A stretch of 64,000 bases of DNA from an uncultured delta proteobacterium (GCA_963765675.1 CAVXXK010000001.1:1536001-1600000), one strand, 5' to 3'. Shown: positions 9,295 through 19,504, counted from the first letter of the stretch. Notes: generated from the sequence alone by a model not told the origin. A program made the numbers and translations.

Positions 9295-11106
9295 GTGCGA
9301 ACCGACACTCCTGCTGGCTCGTCCGCGCCCGAAGCCTCAGCTGCTCCAATACGCGAGCTGACGATTCGCGCGATCCTGCTCGGCGTTGTGCTCGCGCTGA
9401 TTCTCGGCGCCGCAAACGCGTACCTCGGGATGTACGCGGGGATGACCGTCTCTGCGAGTATTCCGGCTGCGGTCATCTCGATGGCGATCCTGCGTATCCT
9501 GGGTGGCGCCACGATTCTCGAAAACAACGTCGTGCAGACGATAGCGTCGGCAGGAGAGGCGGTCGCGGCGGGAGCGATCTTCACTTTTCCCGCGATCGTG
9601 ATCCTGGGCAATCACGGCGCGCTTCCTTACCTCGAAGTGACCGCGCTTAGCGCCGCGGGCGGCACGATGGGCGCGCTGCTGGTGGTCTTCTTGCGCCGCG
9701 CATATGTCGTCGATGAGCGCTTGCCGTTTCCCGAGGGCGTTGCCTGCGCAGAGGTCCTCCGCACCGGCCAGGACGCGGCGCAGGTCGCGCCGCTCGTGTG
9801 GGGCGGAATCCTCGCCGCGATTCTCAAATCCGCGCAGGACATGCTCGGGATCGTTCCCGCCTCGCTATCGGGTGCGAGATGGATCGGCGGCGCGGCGCTC
9901 TCGGGTTCGATCGATATGTCGGCGGCGCTGCTTGGCGTCGGCTATATCATCGGGCCGCGAATCGCGATTTTGGTCTTCGGCGGAGGCGCGTTCGCCTGGA
10001 TCGTCGCGATTCCCTTCCTGATGCTGACGCATCCGGGCGCCGCGACCTCGCACGATGCCGCGACCGCCGCGGCGCAGCTCTGGAGCGCGCAGGTGCGCTA
10101 CCTCGGCGTCGGCGCGATGCTGACCGGCGGAGTCGTCACGCTCTGGCGGCTGCGTACGCGGATCGGCGCGGCGCTTGCGGATAGCCTCACGGTGCTGCGG
10201 TCGCGCGAGGTGATTGTTCGCTCGCGCGAAGACACCGACCTATCGGCGCGCGCAATTCTTGCTGCGGTCGCCTTGGTCGTCCCGGTGATTTTCGCGTTGT
10301 GCCTGATTCTCTCCGGAAGCGTCTGGCTTAGCCTGTCGCTCGCGATCGTTCTGACGCTGGTCGGATTTTTTGCGACCGCCGTGGCTGGTTATCTGACTGG
10401 AATAGTCGGTGCGTCGAACAATCCGGTCTCGGGCGTGACGGTGATCGTGCTTTTGGGTATCGCTCTCTATCTGCGCGCGGTCGGAGTCGAGGGCGCAAGC
10501 GTCGGACCGCGGCTGGCGATTCTGGCCGGCGCCGTGGTCTGCACCGCGGCCGCGATGGCGGGTGATTCGCTGCACGATCTGGCGACGGGGTATCACGTCG
10601 GCGCGACTCCGCGCGCGCTCGAAATTGGCGTGCTGATCGGCGCGCTGGCGGCCTCGGTCGTGATGGCGCCGATTCTGAATTTGCTCATCGCAGGATACGG
10701 AATCGCCGGCACTGCTACTGCCAAAGCCGGCGCGCTCGCGGCGCCCCAGGCCTTCCTGATGGCGAAAGTCGCGCAGGGCGTCTTCAGCGGCGGACTGCCG
10801 TGGGGAACGATCGCGGCCGGCGCGGGACTCGCCGCGATCCTCGCGGTGAGCGACGCAGCCCTCGCGTCGGCGGGCTCTGCGTGGCGCACGCCGATCATGC
10901 CGGTGGCGATTGGACTCTACCTTCCGTTCGGATTGAGCGTCGCGATCTTGCTCGGCGCGCTGATCCGCGCACGCTTCGGCCATCAAGAAGGCGAACTCGG
11001 CGGCCCGGGCCTGCTCTTCGCCGCTGGAATGGTCGCGGGGGAAGCGCTGATGGGCGTCGCGACCGGCGCGATGGTGACCTCGGGCATCCGCCTGCCACTG
11101 TTCTGA
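9295..11106 (+). CDS. OPT family oligopeptide transporter
   Basis: ELTIRAILLG, NAYLGMYAGMTVSASIPAAVISM, ENNVVQTIASAG, LPFPEGVACAEVL, SNNPVSG, APQA. Confidence 0.95.
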   Translation: MRTDTPAGSSAPEASAAPIRELTIRAILLGVVLALILGAANAYLGMYAGMTVSASIPAAVISMAILRILGGATILENNVVQTIASAGEAVAAGAIFTFPAIVILGNHGALPYLEVTALSAAGGTMGALLVVFLRRAYVVDERLPFPEGVACAEVLRTGQDAAQVAPLVWGGILAAILKSAQDMLGIVPASLSGARWIGGAALSGSIDMSAALLGVGYIIGPRIAILVFGGGAFAWIVAIPFLMLTHPGAATSHDAATAAAQLWSAQVRYLGVGAMLTGGVVTLWRLRTRIGAALADSLTVLRSREVIVRSREDTDLSARAILAAVALVVPVIFALCLILSGSVWLSLSLAIVLTLVGFFATAVAGYLTGIVGASNNPVSGVTVIVLLGIALYLRAVGVEGASVGPRLAILAGAVVCTAAAMAGDSLHDLATGYHVGATPRALEIGVLIGALAASVVMAPILNLLIAGYGIAGTATAKAGALAAPQAFLMAKVAQGVFSGGLPWGTIAAGAGLAAILAVSDAALASAGSAWRTPIMPVAIGLYLPFGLSVAILLGALIRARFGHQEGELGGPGLLFAAGMVAGEALMGVATGAMVTSGIRLPLF

Positions 11107-11156
11107 TCGTGCGGGAGCCGGGTCGCTTGATATAAATGTTGCCGGGTAACCGAAAA

Positions 11157-11789
11157 ATGAAACCATTCGCAACCTTGATCGCATCAGGCGTGCTCCTCAT
11201 GGCAGTTGGCGTCGCGCCGCCCGCGCGCGCTGCGGATTCCACGGCGCTATCGCAGACGCAGGTCAGTTTCTTTACTCCTGCGATTCCCAAAGGGACGCCG
11301 CGCGCCGGATCGTGCTGGACCGAGTCGATCGCGGTGACGCGGCCCGGCGCCTGGCGATGCATGATCGGCAATGAGATCCACGATCCATGTTTCCAGGTGC
11401 CGCCGCTCCGGGGTGAAGTCGTATGCGCCGCGAATCCTGCGACCAGTCAAGCTGGGTTCGTTCTTAAGCTCACCAAGCCGTTACCTGAAACCACGCCGCC
11501 TACCGAAAATCCGGAGCCGTGGACGATGCTGCTGGCGGACGGATCGATTTGCCAGCCGTTCACCGGAACCATGCCGATGGTCGGCGGCGACGGCGCGCGA
11601 TGGTTCTGCTACGACCCGTCCGCTCCGATGGACAGCGCGGCGCGCAGCCGCGGCCTGGTCACGAAATTTCATCCAGCCAAAGTCTGGACGGTCGATCGCT
11701 ACGCCGAATCCGACGCGGGGCCACCGGGAGCGACCGGCAATCGTCGCGTGCAAGCGCAGAGCGTTAACGTAGTGAAGGTTTGGGAATAG
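11157..11789 (+). CDS. Secreted Cys-containing hypothetical protein
   Basis: Signal peptide ending ARA; CWTESIA..RPGAWRCMIGNEIHDPCF; six Cys. Confidence 0.7.
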   Translation: MKPFATLIASGVLLMAVGVAPPARAADSTALSQTQVSFFTPAIPKGTPRAGSCWTESIAVTRPGAWRCMIGNEIHDPCFQVPPLRGEVVCAANPATSQAGFVLKLTKPLPETTPPTENPEPWTMLLADGSICQPFTGTMPMVGGDGARWFCYDPSAPMDSAARSRGLVTKFHPAKVWTVDRYAESDAGPPGATGNRRVQAQSVNVVKVWE

Positions 11790-11818
11790 CCGTCGGTTTT
11801 CGAACCGCGCGTGCCACG

Positions 11819-12319
11819 CTATTTTCCGAGTTTCCGCAATTGGCGCGGCGTCAGCATCCACCGCAGTTGCGCGCTGCCGCGCTCGGAGGCCGCCGGAACT
11901 TCCAGCGCCATAAGGCCGCCTTTCTTGAGGGTGATGTTCGCGCCTTTTGGCGCCGATGTAAGCAGCGTCGAGGCGATCCCGCTGAGTTGCGGCTCGTGCC
12001 CGACGATCATCACGTGGCGATGCTTCGCAAACGGACGCAGCGCCGCGATCGCTTCTTGCGGGGCGACGCCGGTCGCTAACGCAGGAACCACTTGCGGCGG
12101 CGGATCGTTCGCGTAGACCGCAGCAACGATCTCTGCGGTTTCCGTGGCGCGCGCGAGTGGGCTGGTCAGAATTACGTCGAACTTGAGCTTCAGCGAGCGC
12201 ATTCCATCGGCGCTGTCGCGAAGTTTCTCGCGTCCGCGCGCGGTCAGCTTGCGTGCGCCGTCGTCGCCGCCCGGGGGCGCGTCTTCCGCGATTCCGTGTC
12301 TTAGAATGTACAAAATCAT
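11819..12319 (-). CDS. sixA: Phosphohistidine phosphatase SixA
   Basis: LYILRHGIAE, TSPLARATETA, VGHEPQLS, LKKGG. Confidence 0.92.
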   Translation of the reverse strand: MILYILRHGIAEDAPPGGDDGARKLTARGREKLRDSADGMRSLKLKFDVILTSPLARATETAEIVAAVYANDPPPQVVPALATGVAPQEAIAALRPFAKHRHVMIVGHEPQLSGIASTLLTSAPKGANITLKKGGLMALEVPAASERGSAQLRWMLTPRQLRKLGK

Positions 12320-13290
12320 TTTTCAGATTCCGTCTTTTCGAGGTTTGCCTTCGCGTGATGCGCCGAATGGCCATGGCGCCGCGTCTCTTCGATTGCATCT
12401 TTCATAGTCTCGCCGCGCTCGAATTTGTGCCATGCCTTGACGCATCGGCGCGCGAGCTTGCGCTCGCGCCGCCTGAGCGACTCGGCCATCGCTCCGGCCG
12501 CGAGCACCGCCTCGGCCGGCGCGCCCTCGGCGTTCGCGTACGCGATGAGCCATGCGATCGCGATGATCGTGTCGTTAAACGAACCCAGCAGGTCTTGCAG
12601 CGCCTCGAGCCGCGCGAGCGCCTTGCGATGACGCTTGCCCCCCAGAGCCGCCAGCATCTCGAGCGTGTATCGCGTCCGCTTGACCCGCACCCGCAGGCGA
12701 TGGACCACCTCGGGCATCGAGGATTCGGTAAGCAGCGCGCCCGCGCGTGACATCGCACGCACCATCCGCGCCAGAATTCCCGCTGCCGCCTGTCCGAGCG
12801 TTGCCGAAGCGGAAATCCGAATCCGCGGTTTCCGCAGCCGCGCCATCGTGGTGTTGAATCTCGCCGATTCCAGAACCTCGCCCAACGTGGCGAGCGCCAG
12901 CGTGCGCGATACTTCGAGCTCCGAATAGAGCGGCGGCAGCATCGCGGCGAGCTTCGGCTCGAGTTTCGGGGCGCGGGCGCGAATAGTATCGCCGATCACG
13001 TCGCATTCGCGAACCTTGCCCGCGCTCTGGGCCAGCCACGGCAAATCCCGGCGCAGAAGCGCGGCCTGTCCGGCGTGAATCACTCCAGAGAACATCTCGA
13101 TCGCCGCGCGCAAGCGGCGCGACGCGACGCGTAGCTGATGGATCGGTTCGATCTCGCCGGCGATCGCCGCGGCGCGCTCGCGTTCCAGCGCGTCCGCGCC
13201 AAACGCGAGCGCGAGCGTTGCGGCTGCTCCAAGGCTGTCCTCAGGCGCGAGCCGCAGCTTGCGCGATTCCGGCTGGACCTCAGCCTCCAC
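12316..13290 (-). CDS. CHAD domain (polyphosphate-binding) protein
   Basis: IHQLRVASRRLRA, GKVRECDV, VHRLRVRVKRTRYTLE, LQDLLGSFND. Confidence 0.9.
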   Translation of the reverse strand: MEAEVQPESRKLRLAPEDSLGAAATLALAFGADALERERAAAIAGEIEPIHQLRVASRRLRAAIEMFSGVIHAGQAALLRRDLPWLAQSAGKVRECDVIGDTIRARAPKLEPKLAAMLPPLYSELEVSRTLALATLGEVLESARFNTTMARLRKPRIRISASATLGQAAAGILARMVRAMSRAGALLTESSMPEVVHRLRVRVKRTRYTLEMLAALGGKRHRKALARLEALQDLLGSFNDTIIAIAWLIAYANAEGAPAEAVLAAGAMAESLRRRERKLARRCVKAWHKFERGETMKDAIEETRRHGHSAHHAKANLEKTESEK

Positions 13291-13293
13291 GCG

Positions 13294-14040
13294 TCATTCC
13301 TTGCGGAGGGAGTTCGATGAGGCCGCTGCGGAGCGTGCAGGTTCTGCGATTTTCAGATAGTCGGCGATATGCTTTTTGAGGTCGCTCTGAATTTCCTCAA
13401 TCGGCGCGCGCGCGTCGACCGAAACGAAGCCAAACTCCGCCGAGAGGTGCCGATATTCCTCGATCAGCCTGCTCTGGTAGCGCTTGAACGAGTCGAACAG
13501 ATCGGTGCCGAGCGCCAGATGCATCCCCGATTCCCAGTAATCCATACCCTTGCCGTGCACCACGCGCGGAATCAGCGTTTCGACATCGATATCGAGGTAG
13601 AGCACCAGGTCCGGCACCAGCGCGACGCCGAACAGCTCGCGGCTCCAGTCCGGATCGGCGCCCATCACGTTGTTGCGCGCAAACGCCGTGTACATGTACC
13701 GGTCCGCGATTACAATAAAGCCCGCCTGCAGCGCGGGCAGAATCTCGTGCTCGAGCCGATCGGCAAAGTCGGCGGCGTAAAGCAGGCTGAAGGTGTTGAC
13801 GGTGAGCTGATGCCCCGCCTTGGCTTCGTTTATGGTTTCAGAGAGCAGCGGCGAGCGCGTCCATCCGGTGTTGCTGACCGCGTAGCCTTCGAGCTCGAGC
13901 CACGGGCGCAGCAGATCGATCTGGGTCGAGCGGCCGACGCCGTCGGTCCCCTCGATCGCGATCAGATGGCCCGGCAGGCGCTTCTCCTTCAGATAGGGCA
14001 GCCCGTGCCCATACCAGGTCTTAGCGCGTTTTGATCGCAT
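13294..14040 (-). CDS. Thymidylate-kinase-like protein, degenerate P-loop copy
   Basis: IEGTDGVGRSTQ (K->R), DFADR, ADRYMYTAFAR, PDLVLYLD. Confidence 0.85.
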   Translation of the reverse strand: MRSKRAKTWYGHGLPYLKEKRLPGHLIAIEGTDGVGRSTQIDLLRPWLELEGYAVSNTGWTRSPLLSETINEAKAGHQLTVNTFSLLYAADFADRLEHEILPALQAGFIVIADRYMYTAFARNNVMGADPDWSRELFGVALVPDLVLYLDIDVETLIPRVVHGKGMDYWESGMHLALGTDLFDSFKRYQSRLIEEYRHLSAEFGFVSVDARAPIEEIQSDLKKHIADYLKIAEPARSAAASSNSLRKE

Positions 14041-14866
14041 GATTGTTGTTTGCCCGCTGGCGATCGTAATCGCGCAGCACGTCTTGCACCATCTTGCGGA
14101 ATCCGCGCTGCTGCAGAGGAATCTCGCCGGTCGCGTCGATTGTGCGCAGTTCGAACTCGTTGGTTAGCTGGTCGTAAATCTCGAGCACGCGGCTTTGAAA
14201 CAGGCGAAAGCTCTCGACCGGATCGGTGGACAGCCCCACGTCCATCCCGGCTTCATGATACTTGAGCTTGGCGCGGCCCGAGAGCAGGCGCTCGAGCGAT
14301 ATTTCGATCGGTACGCGGAAATACAGCGTCAGGTCGGGCTTGAGCGCGAACTTGTACACCGAACGAACCCAATCGGGATCGACTCCGCGCGCCACGTCGC
14401 GCGCGAACGCGGTGAACACATAGCGGTCCGCCAGCACCACCATCCCGGCCTTCAGCGGCGGCAGAATCTGGTAGGTCAGGCGATCGGCGAAATCGACTGC
14501 GTGCAGCAGGCTGAAGGTCGTGGGCGTCAGCAGATTTTTCTTCTTGCCCCGGCTCATCGACCGCCGCACCAGGCGCGACGAATTCCATTCGGTGAAGATG
14601 ACCGGATAGCCGCGCGCACGAAGCCATCGCTCGAGCAGCATGAGCTGGGTCGATTTTCCCGACCCGTCGATTCCTTCGACGGCGATGAGGCGGCCCGGAT
14701 ATCCGTGCGGTGCGCTCAGCAGGCTTTGCGCCGGTTCGGGTCGCGCGGACTGCGTCGGAGAGGACGCCGCGGCCTGCACTCCATTCTGCGCGGCGCTTAA
14801 CGCGCCAGCGTCACCTGGCGGTCCAGCAAGCGTGACAGCAGATCCGTCCTTCTCTCGCATGTCCAT
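14021..14866 (-). CDS. Thymidylate-kinase-like protein, intact P-loop copy (start uncertain)
   Basis: VEGIDGSGKSTQ, TEWNSS, DFADR, ADRYVFTAFARD, PDLTLYF. Confidence 0.88.
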   Translation of the reverse strand: MDMREKDGSAVTLAGPPGDAGALSAAQNGVQAAASSPTQSARPEPAQSLLSAPHGYPGRLIAVEGIDGSGKSTQLMLLERWLRARGYPVIFTEWNSSRLVRRSMSRGKKKNLLTPTTFSLLHAVDFADRLTYQILPPLKAGMVVLADRYVFTAFARDVARGVDPDWVRSVYKFALKPDLTLYFRVPIEISLERLLSGRAKLKYHEAGMDVGLSTDPVESFRLFQSRVLEIYDQLTNEFELRTIDATGEIPLQQRGFRKMVQDVLRDYDRQRANNNHAIKTR

Positions 14867-16311
14867 AGTTCGAGATCCGCTTTTTCCCTGTTTGAATCGA
14901 CCCCGATAATAAGCCGTCCGGGTGAGTAACGCACCTCGATATTTTTGACCACACCGAAGTGGCTGCGGTCCAGCGCGTCGGCGACGCGCAAAATCGCGGC
15001 GAACGCGCGCACCGTCTTGCGCTGCGCAGGAGCCAACGCGCTCAGCTCGGGAGAATCGAGCTTGGGCGCCTGTTTGCGATGCCCGCGCGCGGCCTGCGCT
15101 ACGACTTCGATCTCGTCTCTATCGAAGCCAAACAATTCCGCATTCTTTATTAGATAATAAGAGTGCCGGTTGTGTCGATCATGATCGATCGCGTGCCCGA
15201 TATCATGCAACAGCGCCGCGTACTCCAGCAACTCGCGGCTCTTACGCGACAGTCGCAAAACCGGCGCGGTCGCGTCGAACAGCTTGAGCGCGAGTTTCGC
15301 AACCTGTTTGCCATGCGCATTGGCTCCGGAAAACCGGGCGGCGAGCGCCTTCACCGAACGCCGCCGCGCGTCCTCGGCCGTATGGCGAAACGCGGTGCGC
15401 ATCTGGCTGAGAATCAGCCCCTCGCGCAGCGCCCAAGTACAGGCGACCAGCTCAGGCGCTCCCGAGCGCCGCACGATAAAATCCACCAGCGCTCCCGCCG
15501 CCGGCATCAGGTCAACGCGCTTCGCATCCATTCCCGGCAGTTCCGCACGCAGCGCCGCGTTGGCCGACGCGAGGTCGCGCGCGAGGCCCGAAATCTCCTC
15601 CGCCGACGCGCTCGCGCCGTGCAACCTGCCCAGCTCTTCGCCGCGCGCGGCGCGCGCCATCGCGACCAGAGTGTTGATCGTGCCCGAGGTTCCTACGGCG
15701 CGGACGATTTTCGCCTTGCGCGCCTGGTGCAGGAACACCCCGGCTTCGTGCTCGATATGCTTTTCCATGTGCCGAAGCTGCGCGCGGCTGGGTGGATCTT
15801 CGGTCAGATAGCGCTCCGCAAGCCGCGCCGCTCCCAGCTTCACGCTATGCATCCACAGCGGCTCGCCGTCTTGCACCAGCACCAGCTCGACGCTACCGCC
15901 GCCGACGTCGACCAGCAGATGCGGTCCGCCGTCAAGTCCGAGAGCGTGCCGTGCGGCGATAAAGATCAGGCGCGCCTCTTCGGTTCCGGAGATCACCTGC
16001 ACCGCGATCCCGGTCTCGCGCTTGATGCGCCGGATAAACGCGGTCCGGTTGCGCGCCTCACGCACCGCGCTGGTGGCGACCGCGCGCATCCTGTCCACCT
16101 TGCGCACGCGCGCGAGCCTTCCGAAGTTCGTAAGCGATCGCACGGCCAAGTCCATCGCTTCGTCGGTGAGCTTGCCGGTGGTGAAGGAGCGGCGCCCCAG
16201 GCGCACCATCTCCTTGACCCGATCGACCACCTCGACGCGGCCCTCGCGGGTGGCGTCGGCTACGATCATATGGACGGAGTTTGATCCGACGTCGATCGCG
16301 GCAAGCCGCAT
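14797..16311 (-). CDS. ppx: Ppx/GppA exopolyphosphatase with C-terminal HD domain
   Basis: MRLAAIDVGSNSVHM, ATSAVREARN, ISGTEEARL, DVGGGSVE, ALREG, LLHDIG; true start is ATG 16311. Confidence 0.95.
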   Translation of the reverse strand: MRLAAIDVGSNSVHMIVADATREGRVEVVDRVKEMVRLGRRSFTTGKLTDEAMDLAVRSLTNFGRLARVRKVDRMRAVATSAVREARNRTAFIRRIKRETGIAVQVISGTEEARLIFIAARHALGLDGGPHLLVDVGGGSVELVLVQDGEPLWMHSVKLGAARLAERYLTEDPPSRAQLRHMEKHIEHEAGVFLHQARKAKIVRAVGTSGTINTLVAMARAARGEELGRLHGASASAEEISGLARDLASANAALRAELPGMDAKRVDLMPAAGALVDFIVRRSGAPELVACTWALREGLILSQMRTAFRHTAEDARRRSVKALAARFSGANAHGKQVAKLALKLFDATAPVLRLSRKSRELLEYAALLHDIGHAIDHDRHNRHSYYLIKNAELFGFDRDEIEVVAQAARGHRKQAPKLDSPELSALAPAQRKTVRAFAAILRVADALDRSHFGVVKNIEVRYSPGRLIIGVDSNREKADLELWTCERRTDLLSRLLDRQVTLAR

Positions 16312-16505
16312 GAAAGGATCGTAGCCGCAAAAGTTCGCGAAGTCATCATCGTGCAAAGAAAAATGAAAAAAATTGCATGATAAAGATTTCGCGTCCGCGC
16401 GCGAAGCATCCGCGTAGGATGTTACGGTAGGGTTACACGATCGCGCGCCGATGCCTCGGCGAGCGCGCTTCGCTAGGATAGTCCGGTTACTCTTCTGGCA
16501 ATCAA

Positions 16506-18107
16506 TTGGGTGCGGCAAGCAAAGCGGTAATAGATCACGTCGAGTCCGGACCCGCGACGCACAAGTGGCTGATCGCGATCGCGGTGATGCTCGGCACCAC
16601 GCTCGAGGTGCTCGACACCTCGATCGTCAACGTCGCGTTGCCGCATATGCAGGGCACTTTCTCAGCCAGCGTCGACGAAATCGCGTGGGTGCTGACGAGC
16701 TACCTGGTTGCCAACGGGATCATGATTCCGATGACCGGGTGGATCTCCGCCCGCTTCGGCCGCAAGCGCTATTTCCTGACCTCGGTCACCGTATTCGTGG
16801 TCGCATCCGCGATGTGCGGCGCGGCGCAATCGCTCGATCAGATGGTTTTGTTCCGACTGATCCAGGGCGCGGCCGGCGCCGCGATGATCCCGTCATCGCA
16901 AGCGATCCTGATGGAGACCTTTCCGCCCAACGAGCAGCAACTCGCGATGGCGATGTGGGGAGTCGGCCTGATGGTCGCGCCGATCATGGGTCCAACGCTG
17001 GGCGGATGGATTACCGACAACTGGAACTGGCGCTGGAATTTCTACATCAACATCCCGGTCGGAACTCTCGCCTTCCTGATGGTCACGTGGTTCGTGCACG
17101 ATCCCGACTATCTGCGCGCCCATCGCGCGCGCGGCGGCAAAGTCGACTACCTCGGGATGCTGCTGCTGGTGGTCAGCCTCGGACTCATGCAGATCGTGCT
17201 CGATCGCGGCCAGCGCGCGGATTGGTTTAATTCGGCCTGGGTCGTGTACGCGACCGGAATTTCGGCCACCGCGGCGGTGTGGCTCGTGCTGCACGAGTTG
17301 CGCTTCTCGGAGCCGATCCTGGATTTGCGCATCCTTGCAATTCCGGTGTTCAGTTTTTCGGTTACGCTGATCGTTGCGATGAGCTTTGCGCTCTACGGCA
17401 CCGGACTGCTCAACCCGATCTTCCTGCAGGAACTCCTGGGCTACAACGCATGGAAGGCCGGACTGGTGCTCGCGCCGCGCGGACTCGGGACGATGGTCGC
17501 GATGCTGCTGGTCGGACAGCTCGCGCGCGCACGCCTGGACACTCGCCCGCTCATCGGCCTTGGCTTCGTCCTGATGGCTGCGGCGTTGTGGTCGATGTCG
17601 GGATGGAATCTGCAAGTCAGCATGTGGGTCGTCATATGGCCCAGCGTGGTGATGGGCCTGGGGATGGGCATGATCTTCCCGACCCTGTCGGCCACCACGC
17701 TGTCGTGTGTCACGCGCGAGCGCATCGGGTACGCGGCGAGCCTGTACAACCTGATGCGCAACGCCGGCGCCGCGATCGGCATCTCGTACATGACCACCGC
17801 GCTGGTCAATCACGAGCAGACGCATCAGTCGTACCTGGTCGAGCATTTCTCAGTTTTCGACGCCTGGAAGATGAGCGCCGCCGGAGCGCACACTCCGGGC
17901 GCGATTCCTTTCCACTACCTGCCCCAGATGATCACCGGCCAAAAGCAGGGCCTCGGGATGATTTATGGAATGATCCAGTCGCAAGCCGCGATGCTCTCCT
18001 TCAACGACATCTACCGCGTGCTGATGTTCATGATGATCATCCTGGTCCCGAGCTTCCTGCTGCTCCGCCGCCCTGATACTTCCAGCGGCACCTCGATGGC
18101 GCATTAG
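16506..18107 (+). CDS. DHA2 (EmrB/QacA) MFS efflux permease
   Basis: LEVLDTSIVNVALPHM, WVLTSYLVAN, FRLIQG, GPTLGGWITDNWNWRWNFYINIPVG. Confidence 0.95.
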   Translation: MGAASKAVIDHVESGPATHKWLIAIAVMLGTTLEVLDTSIVNVALPHMQGTFSASVDEIAWVLTSYLVANGIMIPMTGWISARFGRKRYFLTSVTVFVVASAMCGAAQSLDQMVLFRLIQGAAGAAMIPSSQAILMETFPPNEQQLAMAMWGVGLMVAPIMGPTLGGWITDNWNWRWNFYINIPVGTLAFLMVTWFVHDPDYLRAHRARGGKVDYLGMLLLVVSLGLMQIVLDRGQRADWFNSAWVVYATGISATAAVWLVLHELRFSEPILDLRILAIPVFSFSVTLIVAMSFALYGTGLLNPIFLQELLGYNAWKAGLVLAPRGLGTMVAMLLVGQLARARLDTRPLIGLGFVLMAAALWSMSGWNLQVSMWVVIWPSVVMGLGMGMIFPTLSATTLSCVTRERIGYAASLYNLMRNAGAAIGISYMTTALVNHEQTHQSYLVEHFSVFDAWKMSAAGAHTPGAIPFHYLPQMITGQKQGLGMIYGMIQSQAAMLSFNDIYRVLMFMMIILVPSFLLLRRPDTSSGTSMAH

Positions 18108-18118
18108 CGGCGTTTCGC

Positions 18119-18631
18119 CTATTTCAGCAGCTTCTTCAGGTCCTTGAGCAGGAGAAACAGGTGAAGCGGGTCGGTTGGGCTTGGCTCGAAATCGAATTGC
18201 TCGTACCAGCGGCGCGCATTCTCATCCTTTGCATGTACGACCAGACCGCGAATTCCTGCAATGTCCGCAGCCTGCGCCGTGCGCAGTAAGGCGTCCTTGA
18301 GAAGAGCTTTGCCTATGCCGGTTCCTTGCTCAGAGACATCCACGGCCAATCTGGCCAGTATCATCACGGGGATCGGATGCCGCGCGAGGCCCTTGACCGC
18401 GCGCGGAGGCGACTTCTCAGACTGAACGGAACCGACCGCGAGACTGTAGTAGCCGACGACGCGGCTCGCACGGCAGGTGACGTATGTCTGCGTGGCGTTG
18501 GCGGCCTGATTTGCCAGGGCGAATTTCTTTAGAAATCGGTCTAGCTCTTCTCGTCCGCAGTTGAACAGGTCGGCGATGTCTTGCGCGGTGAGCTTATGGA
18601 CCGGCGAGATCGCTTCGGAGGCACCGGTCAC
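18119..18631 (-). CDS. GNAT acetyltransferase toxin (AtaT/TacT-like)
   Basis: FNCGREELDRFL, VVGYYSL, PVMILARLAVD, QGTGIGKALL, VHAKDENARRWY. Confidence 0.9.
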   Translation of the reverse strand: MTGASEAISPVHKLTAQDIADLFNCGREELDRFLKKFALANQAANATQTYVTCRASRVVGYYSLAVGSVQSEKSPPRAVKGLARHPIPVMILARLAVDVSEQGTGIGKALLKDALLRTAQAADIAGIRGLVVHAKDENARRWYEQFDFEPSPTDPLHLFLLLKDLKKLLK

Positions 18632-18903
18632 TCAAGGGCACTCCGCTCGGCGAGCAATCGGGCAAGCCCGGGCTTTACTCGGGCAGGACGATCCAGGATT
18701 TTCACAAAAGCGTTCCATCGCCGTTTGTCGAGCACGAACGAGCGCCGGTCTTCCAGAGTCTCGGCCGCCGCAGTCAGGCCGGCGTCCAGGAGAAACTGAC
18801 TCACCGTCTTATTTGCCTGCGTCGCCGCCATCTGCAACGTGCCCTTGGCGGCGGAGCTGACCCGCACGTCGATACGCTCTGTTTTCGAAACTGCCGCTGG
18901 CAT
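18628..18903 (-). CDS. DUF1778/TacA-like ribbon-helix-helix antitoxin
   Basis: KTERIDVRV..LQMAA..TVSQFLL..AAETLEDRR..WNAFVKILDRP; 4-nt overlap with the toxin gene. Confidence 0.9.
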   Translation of the reverse strand: MPAAVSKTERIDVRVSSAAKGTLQMAATQANKTVSQFLLDAGLTAAAETLEDRRSFVLDKRRWNAFVKILDRPARVKPGLARLLAERSALE

Positions 18904-18979: not shown

Positions 18980-19504
18980 TTAGTCGGGGATAGCCGCGCG
19001 GGTGCGCTCGAAGGCGGCGAGTCCGGCAGCGTCGAACAGGACGAATTCGACGCGCTCGATGCTTGTGAGGCCGCGAAGATGCTCGCGAACCTCGTCGAGC
19101 ATGACGCGGGCGCATCGATCGATCGGGAACCCGGCGATTCCCGTCCCGATTGCCGGAAACGCGATCGACTTGAGTCCCTTTTCGTTTGCGCGCTTGAGCG
19201 AATTGCGCGTCGCCGCGCGCAGGTGCGCTTCAGTCGTGCTGCCGCCCAGGCGCATGCTCGCGGCGTGAATCACGAATTTTGACGGCAGACGTCCGGCGCC
19301 GGTAATTGCCGCCTCGCCGATCGCGATCGGTCCGAGGCGGTCGCATTCCTCCTGAATCGCCGGACCGCCCTTGCTTCTGATCGCTCCCGCGACGCCGCCG
19401 CCAAGTAACAGATCGTTGTTGGCGGCGTTCACGATCGCGTCGGTCCTGGCTTCGGTCAGATCGCCCTGGCGGAGTTTCACCCTGCCGCGCCATCCTGTTC
19501 CCAT
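18980..19504 (-). CDS. Macro domain protein (ADP-ribose/O-acetyl-ADP-ribose hydrolase family)
   Basis: QGDLT, DAIVNAAN, GGGVAGAI, VIHA, SIAFPAIGTGIAGFP. Confidence 0.93.
   Translation of the reverse strand: MGTGWRGRVKLRQGDLTEARTDAIVNAANNDLLLGGGVAGAIRSKGGPAIQEECDRLGPIAIGEAAITGAGRLPSKFVIHAASMRLGGSTTEAHLRAATRNSLKRANEKGLKSIAFPAIGTGIAGFPIDRCARVMLDEVREHLRGLTSIERVEFVLFDAAGLAAFERTRAAIPD

Follow-up and report, generated by a model that had tools for sequence, protein, structure and literature searches.

A probable bacterial PPK3 polyphosphate operon with paired thymidylate-kinase-fold subunits in an uncultured Binataceae genome

What do two adjacent genes of the thymidylate-kinase (TMK) fold do in the middle of a set of polyphosphate (polyP) genes? 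The question is raised by positions 11,819-16,311 of the window, by which we mean the whole analysed stretch of 64,000 nucleotides from an uncultured delta proteobacterium (GCA_963765675.1, CAVXXK010000001.1:1536001-1600000; G+C about 62%), where five open reading frames (ORFs) are co-oriented on the minus strand in the order ppx, kinase 1, kinase 2, CHAD and sixA. An initial annotation, made from the sequence alone, had proposed here an undescribed polyP system in which one of the two kinases would be catalytic and the other regulatory, the pair serving as a polyP kinase or polyP-dependent nucleotide kinase rather than as a housekeeping Tmk. We consider it quite probable that these genes make up a bacterial PPK3 polyphosphate operon, i.e., an uncharacterised member of a known family, with which the locus agrees in sequence, fold, tree position and synteny. 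The core of the earlier proposal would therefore stand, being supported by the membership tests described below and, by analogy, by the homologous archaeal proteins Saci_2019 and Saci_2020 as the main text of the PPK3 paper describes them (PMC12995831).

PPK3 was reported by Hofmann et al. in a preprint of 2024 (10.1101/2024.08.28.610084) and in the Journal of Biological Chemistry in February 2026 (PMC12995831), so that neither the family nor the operon architecture is undescribed. According to the main text of the latter, the Sulfolobus acidocaldarius operon sixA-ppx-saci_2019-saci_2020-CHAD encodes the heteromeric polyP kinase PPK3, in which Saci_2019 (cPPK3, here the c type) is catalytic, making polyP from ATP and also ATP from polyP plus ADP, with no dTMP kinase activity, and Saci_2020 (rPPK3, here the r type) shows no PPK or dTMP kinase activity, with trace ADP only, and stimulates Saci_2019 about 10-fold (PMC12995831). 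The characterised complex (SaPPK3) is an alpha2-beta2 heterotetramer and not the heterodimer that the initial annotation had in mind; its reaction is reversible with an about 50-fold preference for polyP + ADP -> ATP, and the real S. acidocaldarius dTMP kinase is encoded by a third gene, saci_0893 (PMC12995831). In the abstract of the paper, the family is said to occur chiefly in Crenarchaeota and "a few bacteria", and PPX, SixA and CHAD are reported from PPK3 gene neighbourhoods (PMC12995831).

Kinase 1, kinase 2 and the PPK3 family

Kinase 1 matches the Thymidylate_kin family (PF02223) with 84.1 bits and the dTMP-kinase equivalog TIGR00041 with 82.6 bits, just under its cut-off of 83.25; against all PDB sequences, its best match is ST1543/STK_15430 (2plr, 5h70), with 198.9 bits and 44-48% identity vs. 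at most 63.8 bits for canonical dTMP kinases. It was via this protein, a cPPK3 homologue according to the paper's main text (PMC12995831), that membership of the cPPK3 clade was tested, with STK_15430 standing for Saci_2019. The AlphaFold2 model of kinase 1 (pLDDT 87.8) has the ST1543 chains as its top fold matches (TMt 0.90-0.94), canonical TMKs coming next; residues 1-55 form a low-confidence N-terminal extension, and the start codon is uncertain, with an in-frame GTG at 14779. The nucleotide-site residues are kept (P-loop K71 in GIDGSGKST, and D147-R148-Y149), and the dTMP-site motifs are replaced, with TEWNSS instead of THEPGG and TAFARD instead of TAYQG when the tmk of the same genome is taken as the reference. 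The c-specific states, namely H122 and the basic residues R101, R106, K108-K110, R198 and K202, are all present, as is the basic patch RRSMSRGKKK in the translation, and the nearest tree rows of kinase 1 are of the c type. These features of the sequence lead us to predict that kinase 1 is a cPPK3-type subunit of the PPK3 family with ATP:polyP activity.

Kinase 2 is a paralogue of kinase 1, with 45% identity over 209 residues, and the motifs from which the initial annotation had read this relationship were recovered in the translations: TFSLLHAVDFADR and DRYVFTAFAR in kinase 1 correspond to TFSLLYAADFADR and DRYMYTAFAR in kinase 2, and the other motifs it had listed (TEWNSS/TGWTRS, GIDGSGKST with RRSMSRGKKK in kinase 1, and GTDGVGRST in kinase 2) are likewise all there. 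Kinase 2 scores 74.5 bits against PF02223 and 87.4 bits against TIGR00041, over the cut-off of 83.25, and among PDB sequences it finds ST1543 with 146.2 bits and 37-39% identity vs. at most 50.6 bits for canonical dTMP kinases; in fold also, its AlphaFold2 model (pLDDT 91.1) matches the ST1543 chains best (TMt 0.88-0.92), followed by canonical TMKs. In kinase 1 numbering, its r-type marks are the P-loop Arg, TGWTRS, Y122, G110 and D202, and in place of the basic, putatively cleft-lining residues of the c type it has S101, E106, A109, G110 and D202. Neither kinase has a PPK2 (PF03976) match at E <= 0.01, and no PPK2 chains are among the fold matches shown for the two models. Membership of either kinase in PPK2 was rejected, given that the PF03976 match is missing, the fold is that of TMK, and the PPK2 genes of this genome lie elsewhere; of the TMK-relatedness of PPK2, which the initial annotation had invoked and which is only loosely relevant here, the TMK fold was found and the PPK2 match was not.

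The division into c and r is general. The alignment used to find diagnostic residues covers 74 loci, with 74 c-type and 66 r-type sequences. At the P-loop position, 73/74 c sequences have Lys and 65/66 r sequences have Arg, and the D-R of DRY is kept in every one of both types (74/74 and 66/66). Basic in c and not in r are K/R101, R/K106, K108 (74/74), K109, K/R110, R198 (73/74) and K202 (66/74), the r sequences having typically G/S101, G110 and D202; the c type has [TS]EWNSS with H122, the r type TG[LW]xRS with Y122. The c states are complete in kinase 1, as are the r states in kinase 2. In a quick IQ-TREE tree of 138 rows, from which ORFs of <200 or >320 residues were left out, kinase 2 groups with the r type in a clade of 60 rows (SH-aLRT 99) and five canonical tmk rows form a clade of their own (SH-aLRT 99). 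The c label requires two changes on this tree, in which three "odd" rows of divergent sequence and two long ones (L106) leave the deep placement uncertain.

A 1:1 complex prediction of kinase 1 residues 52-281 with kinase 2 gave a score of 0.59 vs. 0.10 for the best of three controls, the runs agreeing in at least 94% of contacts with a partner pLDDT of at least 82. In the calibration, the mark was reached by 58/80 solved complexes and by 2/110 mismatched pairs; at scores of 0.60 or lower, it was reached by 7/80 solved complexes and by both of the passing mismatches. Because TMK homodimers are solved in the PDB, the score may reflect likeness only.

Distribution, genomic context and other polyP kinases

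In a set of 41 related genomes, this one included, three tiers of matches were found: a kinase 1 orthologue with 257-621 bits in 24/41 genomes, an adjoining kinase 2 orthologue with 155-193 bits in 23, and a canonical tmk elsewhere with about 28-63 bits; in the 24th genome, the neighbouring kinase 2 is cut by the contig end. When the unpublished genome G010 is taken out of the set, c is found in 23/40 and r in 22. Among the 18 relatives' loci that were fetched, kinase 1 and kinase 2 are adjacent and co-oriented in 17, the 18th being cut by the contig end; ppx lies directly upstream on the same strand in 13/18, and the full five-gene order is kept in 7/18. The pair also recurs in other phyla, and given this recurrence, the five-gene arrangement is not a product of chance.

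A whole-library HMMER search at E <= 1e-30 gave 362 representative clusters (50% identity), and a profile scan of species-representative genomes gave 80 loci, 74 of them with a c-type gene. These 74 carry 16 phylum labels, plus four unlabelled loci, with Acidobacteriota (20), Verrucomicrobiota (11), Chloroflexota (10), Nitrospirota (5), Planctomycetota (4) and Nitrososphaerota (4) among them, and c is followed by an adjacent r in 65. Within about 6 kb of c we found ppx in 46, CHAD in 26, sixA in 28, any of these three in 50, ppk2 in 2 and ppk1 in 0 of the 74 loci, so that the linkage to polyP genes, whose conservation had been proposed as a check, is seen in 50/74. The neighbour profiles were home-made in one round and trimmed to the seed columns, being therefore less sensitive than Pfam, and a "not found" is accordingly weak. 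Four canonical-tmk loci in the same 80-locus set have none of ppx, CHAD, sixA or ppk nearby.

Several unusual arrangements were seen along the way. A ppk2 gene stands directly beside the c-r pair at G026:C128:75249-77373 and in loci L083 and L101. CHAD-Ppx fusions are encoded next to PPK3 pairs of other phyla at L088:2822-6052, L073:5202-7406, L091:9796-11316 and L109:10813-12387, the order in L088 being r, CHAD-Ppx fusion, c. In three loci from metagenome-assembled genomes (L090, L105, L112), the r genes are split into several short ORFs, as are c and ppx in L112. Fused PPK3-like proteins were also found in metagenomes (P0121, P0128, P0139, P0160, P0162, P0177, P0187, P0194), comprising a c-r single chain of 460 aa, c-r chains joined to the Ppx domain III/HD (650-696 aa), an MFS transporter with TMK-like and DUF2252 domains (about 1200 aa), an SPX domain with TMK-like and DUF2252 domains (794 aa), and giant InPase plus TMK-like proteins, one of them with an ART-PolyVal domain. 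Through the fusions with SPX and Ppx domains, this clade of kinases is tied independently to the metabolism of phosphate and polyP.

The initial annotation had asked whether the genome has a separate canonical tmk, and it does, at C1:336488-337069, beside a holB-like gene, with 169.5 bits against PF02223 and the motifs THEPGGT and TAYQG. It had further supposed that the pair acts in place of ppk, and this failed: the genome has ppk1 at C1:1532811-1533341, just upstream of the window start, on the same strand and about 14 kb from sixA, together with at least one complete ppk2 and further PPK2-like matches. As regards the latter, at C1:124907-125577 the PPK2 match comes in two adjacent pieces (profile 4-60 and 63-226), which suggests a frameshift or an assembly error. 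In the same-genus genomes G003, G005 and G009, ppk1 lies 17-18 kb from kinase 1 on the same contig, and likewise in G010. Taking the 24 PPK3-bearing relatives together, ppk1 is present in 19 and ppk2 in 16 (18/23 and 16/23 without G010), and only G021 has neither, so that 23/24 have one or both. The idea of the PPK3 pair as a replacement of PPK1/PPK2 was consequently rejected for this lineage. Among the 74 c-bearing genomes of other phyla, 30 have ppk1, 51 ppk2, 25 both, and 56/74 at least one; the 18/74 with neither are an upper bound, given that genome completeness is not stated.

The five genes themselves are listed in Table 1, and all their family assignments by the initial annotation agree with Pfam and NCBIfam, just as the coordinates agree with the junctions it had described: the kinase 1 and kinase 2 ORFs overlap by 20 nt (14021-14040), 3 nt (13291-13293) separate kinase 2 from the GTG start of CHAD, and CHAD and sixA overlap by 4 nt, ATGA (12316-12319). 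The 3' end of ppx is also overlapped, by 70 nt, if kinase 1 starts at the ATG at 14866. Gene ends that overlap in this way suggest that the genes are expressed in stoichiometric amounts through translational coupling.

Table 1. Positions in the window of the five clustered genes, with names of the kinases as predicted, and of three nearby features
Feature	Position	Strand	Description
ppx	14797-16311	(-)	504 aa; Ppx/GppA-family exopolyphosphatase, C-terminal domain III/HD
kinase 1 (cPPK3-type catalytic subunit, predicted)	14021-14866	(-)	281 aa; ST1543 match, fold, c-type residues
kinase 2 (rPPK3-type subunit, predicted)	13294-14040	(-)	248 aa; P-loop Lys replaced by Arg (GTDGVGRST), DRY kept
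CHAD-domain protein	12316-13290	(-)	324 aa, GTG start; PF05235
sixA, SixA-type histidine-phosphatase superfamily	11819-12319	(-)	166 aa; N-terminal RHG motif
protein between OPT transporter and sixA	11136-11789	(+)	217 aa, hydrophobic N-terminus; convergent with the operon; no Pfam match
TacA-like antitoxin overlapping GNAT acetyltransferase gene	18119-18903	(-)	TacAT-type toxin-antitoxin pair; PF08681, 74.3 bits
stand-alone macro-domain protein	18980-19504	(-)	adjoins the TacAT-type pair; PF01661, 130.8 bits

The Ppx protein, one of two Ppx-GppA gene products of the genome, matches PF02541 (198.7 bits), PF21447 (107.4 bits) and HD (40.2 bits), and in NCBIfam it scores highest against the exopolyphosphatase model TIGR03706 (271.9 bits, below the cut-off of 307). 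The CHAD protein (PF05235, 138.5 bits) is the sole one found in the genome, and the sixA product, with LRHG in its translation, scores 87.1 bits against TIGR00249 (cut-off 74.5) and 39 bits against PF00300. The flanking genes have no polyP link, encoding an OPT transporter, a family-less protein and a divergently transcribed MFS transporter. A search of sequencing runs listed no RNA data set with this sequence, and the best DNA runs listed were soil and peat metagenomes with shares of at most 0.28.

Proposed mechanism and competing explanations

By analogy with the archaeal enzyme, the mechanism of the cluster may be proposed as follows. The P-loop of kinase 1 would bind ATP or ADP, the former dTMP pocket and lid would have been rebuilt as a basic cleft that might hold the end of the polyP chain, and the DRY arginine would position the transferred phosphate in the reversible reaction polyP(n) + ADP <-> polyP(n-1) + ATP, where ATP formation is strongly favoured in the archaeal enzyme. 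Kinase 2 would be non-catalytic and regulatory, oligomerising with kinase 1 (alpha2-beta2 in Sulfolobus) and raising its activity, and Ppx would hydrolyse polyP to Pi while CHAD would bind the polyP granule, with SixA completing a putative polyP turnover module. It is likewise from the archaeal analogy that we infer the same activity for this pair, and from it also come our proposals as to where the polyP cleft would lie, what kinase 2 would do and which way the reaction would run in vivo. Given that PPK1 and PPK2 are present, PPK3 would add here a polyP-to-ATP energy-buffer route and would not be the sole polyP synthase, and the most economical proposal is that its main task would be to restore ATP from polyP when the energy charge is low.

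Would ordinary metabolism of nucleotides explain the cluster as well? Both kinases match PF02223, kinase 2 passes TIGR00041 and kinase 1 narrowly misses it, relatives are publicly named "dTMP kinase", and ST1543 was itself first published as an unusual thymidylate kinase, in a study that measured ADP formation only (as told in the main text of 10.1101/2024.08.28.610084), all of which would fit a duplicated tmk encoding ATP-dependent (d)NMP kinases that came to lie beside polyP genes by chance. We regard this as extremely improbable, since the canonical tmk (169.5 bits) lies elsewhere beside the holB-like gene, the dTMP-site motifs of the pair are replaced (TEWNSS/TGWTRS, TAFAR) and kinase 2 has no Lys in its P-loop, linkage of the pair to ppx is seen in many phyla, and neither Saci_2019 nor Saci_2020 has dTMP kinase activity according to the paper's main text (PMC12995831). 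Scarcely more credible is a cluster acting on pppGpp/ppGpp or other nucleotides, in which Ppx would be a pppGpp phosphatase, the kinases would serve the nucleotide pool, and polyP would be incidental. The Ppx/GppA family does include GppA, and the match of this Ppx to the GppA equivalog NF008260 (179 bits, cut-off 624) is as weak as that to the long-PPX model NF008108 (179.4 bits, cut-off 864); however, its best NCBIfam match is to the exopolyphosphatase model, the operon holds the only copy in the genome of CHAD, described as a polyP-granule-associated domain in PMC10892726, and the homologous archaeal kinases use polyP, as stated in the main text of PMC12995831.

More serious is the alternative that kinase 1 is catalytic and kinase 2 has a working ligand site, formed by its strictly conserved P-loop with Arg and by the DRY and lid residues that it keeps, either for allosteric sensing of ATP/ADP or of polyP ends, or for a second phosphotransfer, which we hold to be possible, though somewhat doubtful. 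In its favour, the r sequences nearly always have the P-loop Arg (65/66) and always keep the D-R of DRY (66/66), and an alignment of 55 r sequences (A3) is invariant, in kinase 2 numbering, at G24, E30, G31, D33, G36, D113, R114, R122, R159 and E170, and invariant or nearly so at R37 and R126; invariance at these nucleotide-site positions points to a maintained ligand site under purifying selection rather than to decay. A survey of 201 Thermoproteota genomes adds a comparison, since the archaeal pairs are of two types. In seven pairs of type 1, the r is like kinase 2, with the P-loop Arg in 7/7 and DRY kept in 7/7; the six ppx-c-r operons of type 2 (L127-L132) have a divergent r of 208-212 aa, with 68-95 bits to kinase 2, in which the DRX Arg is replaced by Gly in 6/6 and the P-loop keeps Lys in 4/6, with Arg in 2/6. 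These six are called the Sulfolobus type here, as they fit the description in the paper's main text, by which alone they were compared. The published signature of r inactivation thus seems specific to one of the r types, the other being the one found at this locus, and the two are "disabled", to judge from the sequences, at different positions. Against a working site in kinase 2 stand the missing c-specific basic residues of the r type and the fact that a Walker A Lys->Arg change usually cripples phosphotransfer in P-loop enzymes. Moreover, the sole characterised r, Saci_2020, is without PPK or dTMP kinase activity in the main text of PMC12995831.

The reading of the cluster as a PPK3 operon has several points against it as well. 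Both versions of the paper attribute the inactivity of r to the loss of the DRX arginine in their main texts (PMC12995831; 10.1101/2024.08.28.610084), and kinase 2, contrary to this explanation, keeps that arginine (D113-R114-Y115) together with most active-site residues, for which reason "regulatory, inactive" is a tentative label for this subunit. The majority of PPK3 genomes encode neither PPK1 nor PPK2 according to the same source (PMC12995831), unlike this genome and 23/24 of the PPK3-bearing relatives, and the physiological role may consequently differ from that of the published PPK3; the two statements may not conflict, our sample being biased to bacteria near this query. In 24/74 c-bearing loci, none of ppx, CHAD or sixA was found within about 6 kb by the home-made profiles; the complex prediction lends weak support to a kinase 1-kinase 2 heteromer; and a literature search found no experimentally characterised bacterial PPK3. 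Finally, it is from the overlaps that the operon structure is read, since scans of 11000-17000 for promoters and terminators were no better than shuffles (one promoter-like site vs. a shuffle mean of 1.3, and seven terminator-like sites vs. 5.7).

Going beyond the PPK3 operon as such, we offer tentatively a wider picture, to which we give rather less than even chances: bacterial PPK3 would be widespread and would usually work alongside PPK1 and/or PPK2 instead of standing in for a missing PPK, as the third arm of a polyP network and a dedicated polyP-to-ATP buffer. The r subunit would be a conserved ligand-sensing pseudokinase, binding ATP/ADP or the polyP end with its P-loop Arg and intact DRY site and so setting the direction or rate of c, and the two r types would be independent solutions that silence catalysis and keep binding.

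Significance and comparison with known systems

Uncultured bacteria of soils and sediments, among them Acidobacteriota, Verrucomicrobiota, Chloroflexota, Nitrospirota, Planctomycetota and Binatota, commonly carry the c-r pair, as a rule together with ppx, and in a family defined on one archaeal enzyme (main text of PMC12995831) this has practical consequences. The relatives of kinase 1 are named "dTMP kinase" or "thymidylate kinase" in public sources, so that PPK3 subunits systematically go under a wrong name, and annotation pipelines call both genes of the pair "dTMP kinase". Where a genome has two "extra" tmk genes beside ppx, these merit re-annotation, and metagenome surveys of phosphorus cycling that score ppk1 and ppk2 only will miss a polyP kinase. 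Given that PPK3 coexists here with PPK1/PPK2 and that the r signature differs, the Binataceae-type enzyme is a good second model for asking how general the Sulfolobus regulatory mechanism is. Three of our observations go beyond the main text of the paper, namely the c-r pair under at least 16 phylum labels, the co-occurrence with ppk1/ppk2, and an r with the P-loop Arg and the DRX kept, although its supplement may already show these (PMC12995831). The string "Binat" is absent from the main text of both versions (PMC12995831; 10.1101/2024.08.28.610084), and a search for literature on Binatota and polyphosphate gave no title on this system.

Among known systems, SaPPK3, as its main text presents it (PMC12995831), is the closest. 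The same five gene families are co-oriented, with ppx followed by c and then r, the TMK fold is common to both kinases, c combines an intact P-loop with the DRX and with a basic patch that is missing from r, and a canonical tmk lies elsewhere. Unlike SaPPK3, the host here is bacterial (Binataceae), CHAD and sixA are both downstream of the kinases, kinase 1 has the 55-residue N-terminal extension, and the genome also has ppk1, whose product is introduced in the paper as the usual polyP synthase (PMC12995831), and ppk2. The r subunit differs too, keeping the DRX Arg and having the P-loop Lys replaced by Arg, whereas archaeal type 2 has Gly at the DRX Arg (6/6). What is known of the biochemistry comes from the archaeal enzyme.

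ST1543/STK_15430 of Sulfurisphaera tokodaii (PDB 2plr, 4nzy, 4rzx, 5h70), the protein that both kinases match best in sequence and in fold, was deposited as a dTMP kinase before being called a cPPK3 homologue in the main text of PMC12995831; it is archaeal, has 213 residues without the N-terminal extension, and was solved without an r partner, so that it is uninformative on the heteromer. Canonical Tmk (TIGR00041/PF02223) has the fold, the P-loop position and the DRY/DRH motif in common with both kinases, which differ from it in their replaced dTMP motifs, in their scores (84 and 75 bits vs. 169.5 for the tmk of the same genome), in their separate clade, and in a context of ppx, CHAD and sixA vs. 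one with a holB-like gene. A functional analogue, lastly, is the two-domain class II PPK2 (e.g., PA3455), which according to the main text of PMC12995831 carries out polyP-dependent nucleotide phosphorylation with two P-loop kinase modules, of which one is active and the other, inactive, serves for oligomerisation; it belongs to another family, and the modules that it holds in one chain are separate genes in this Binataceae operon, though a fused c-r protein (P0121) exists as well.

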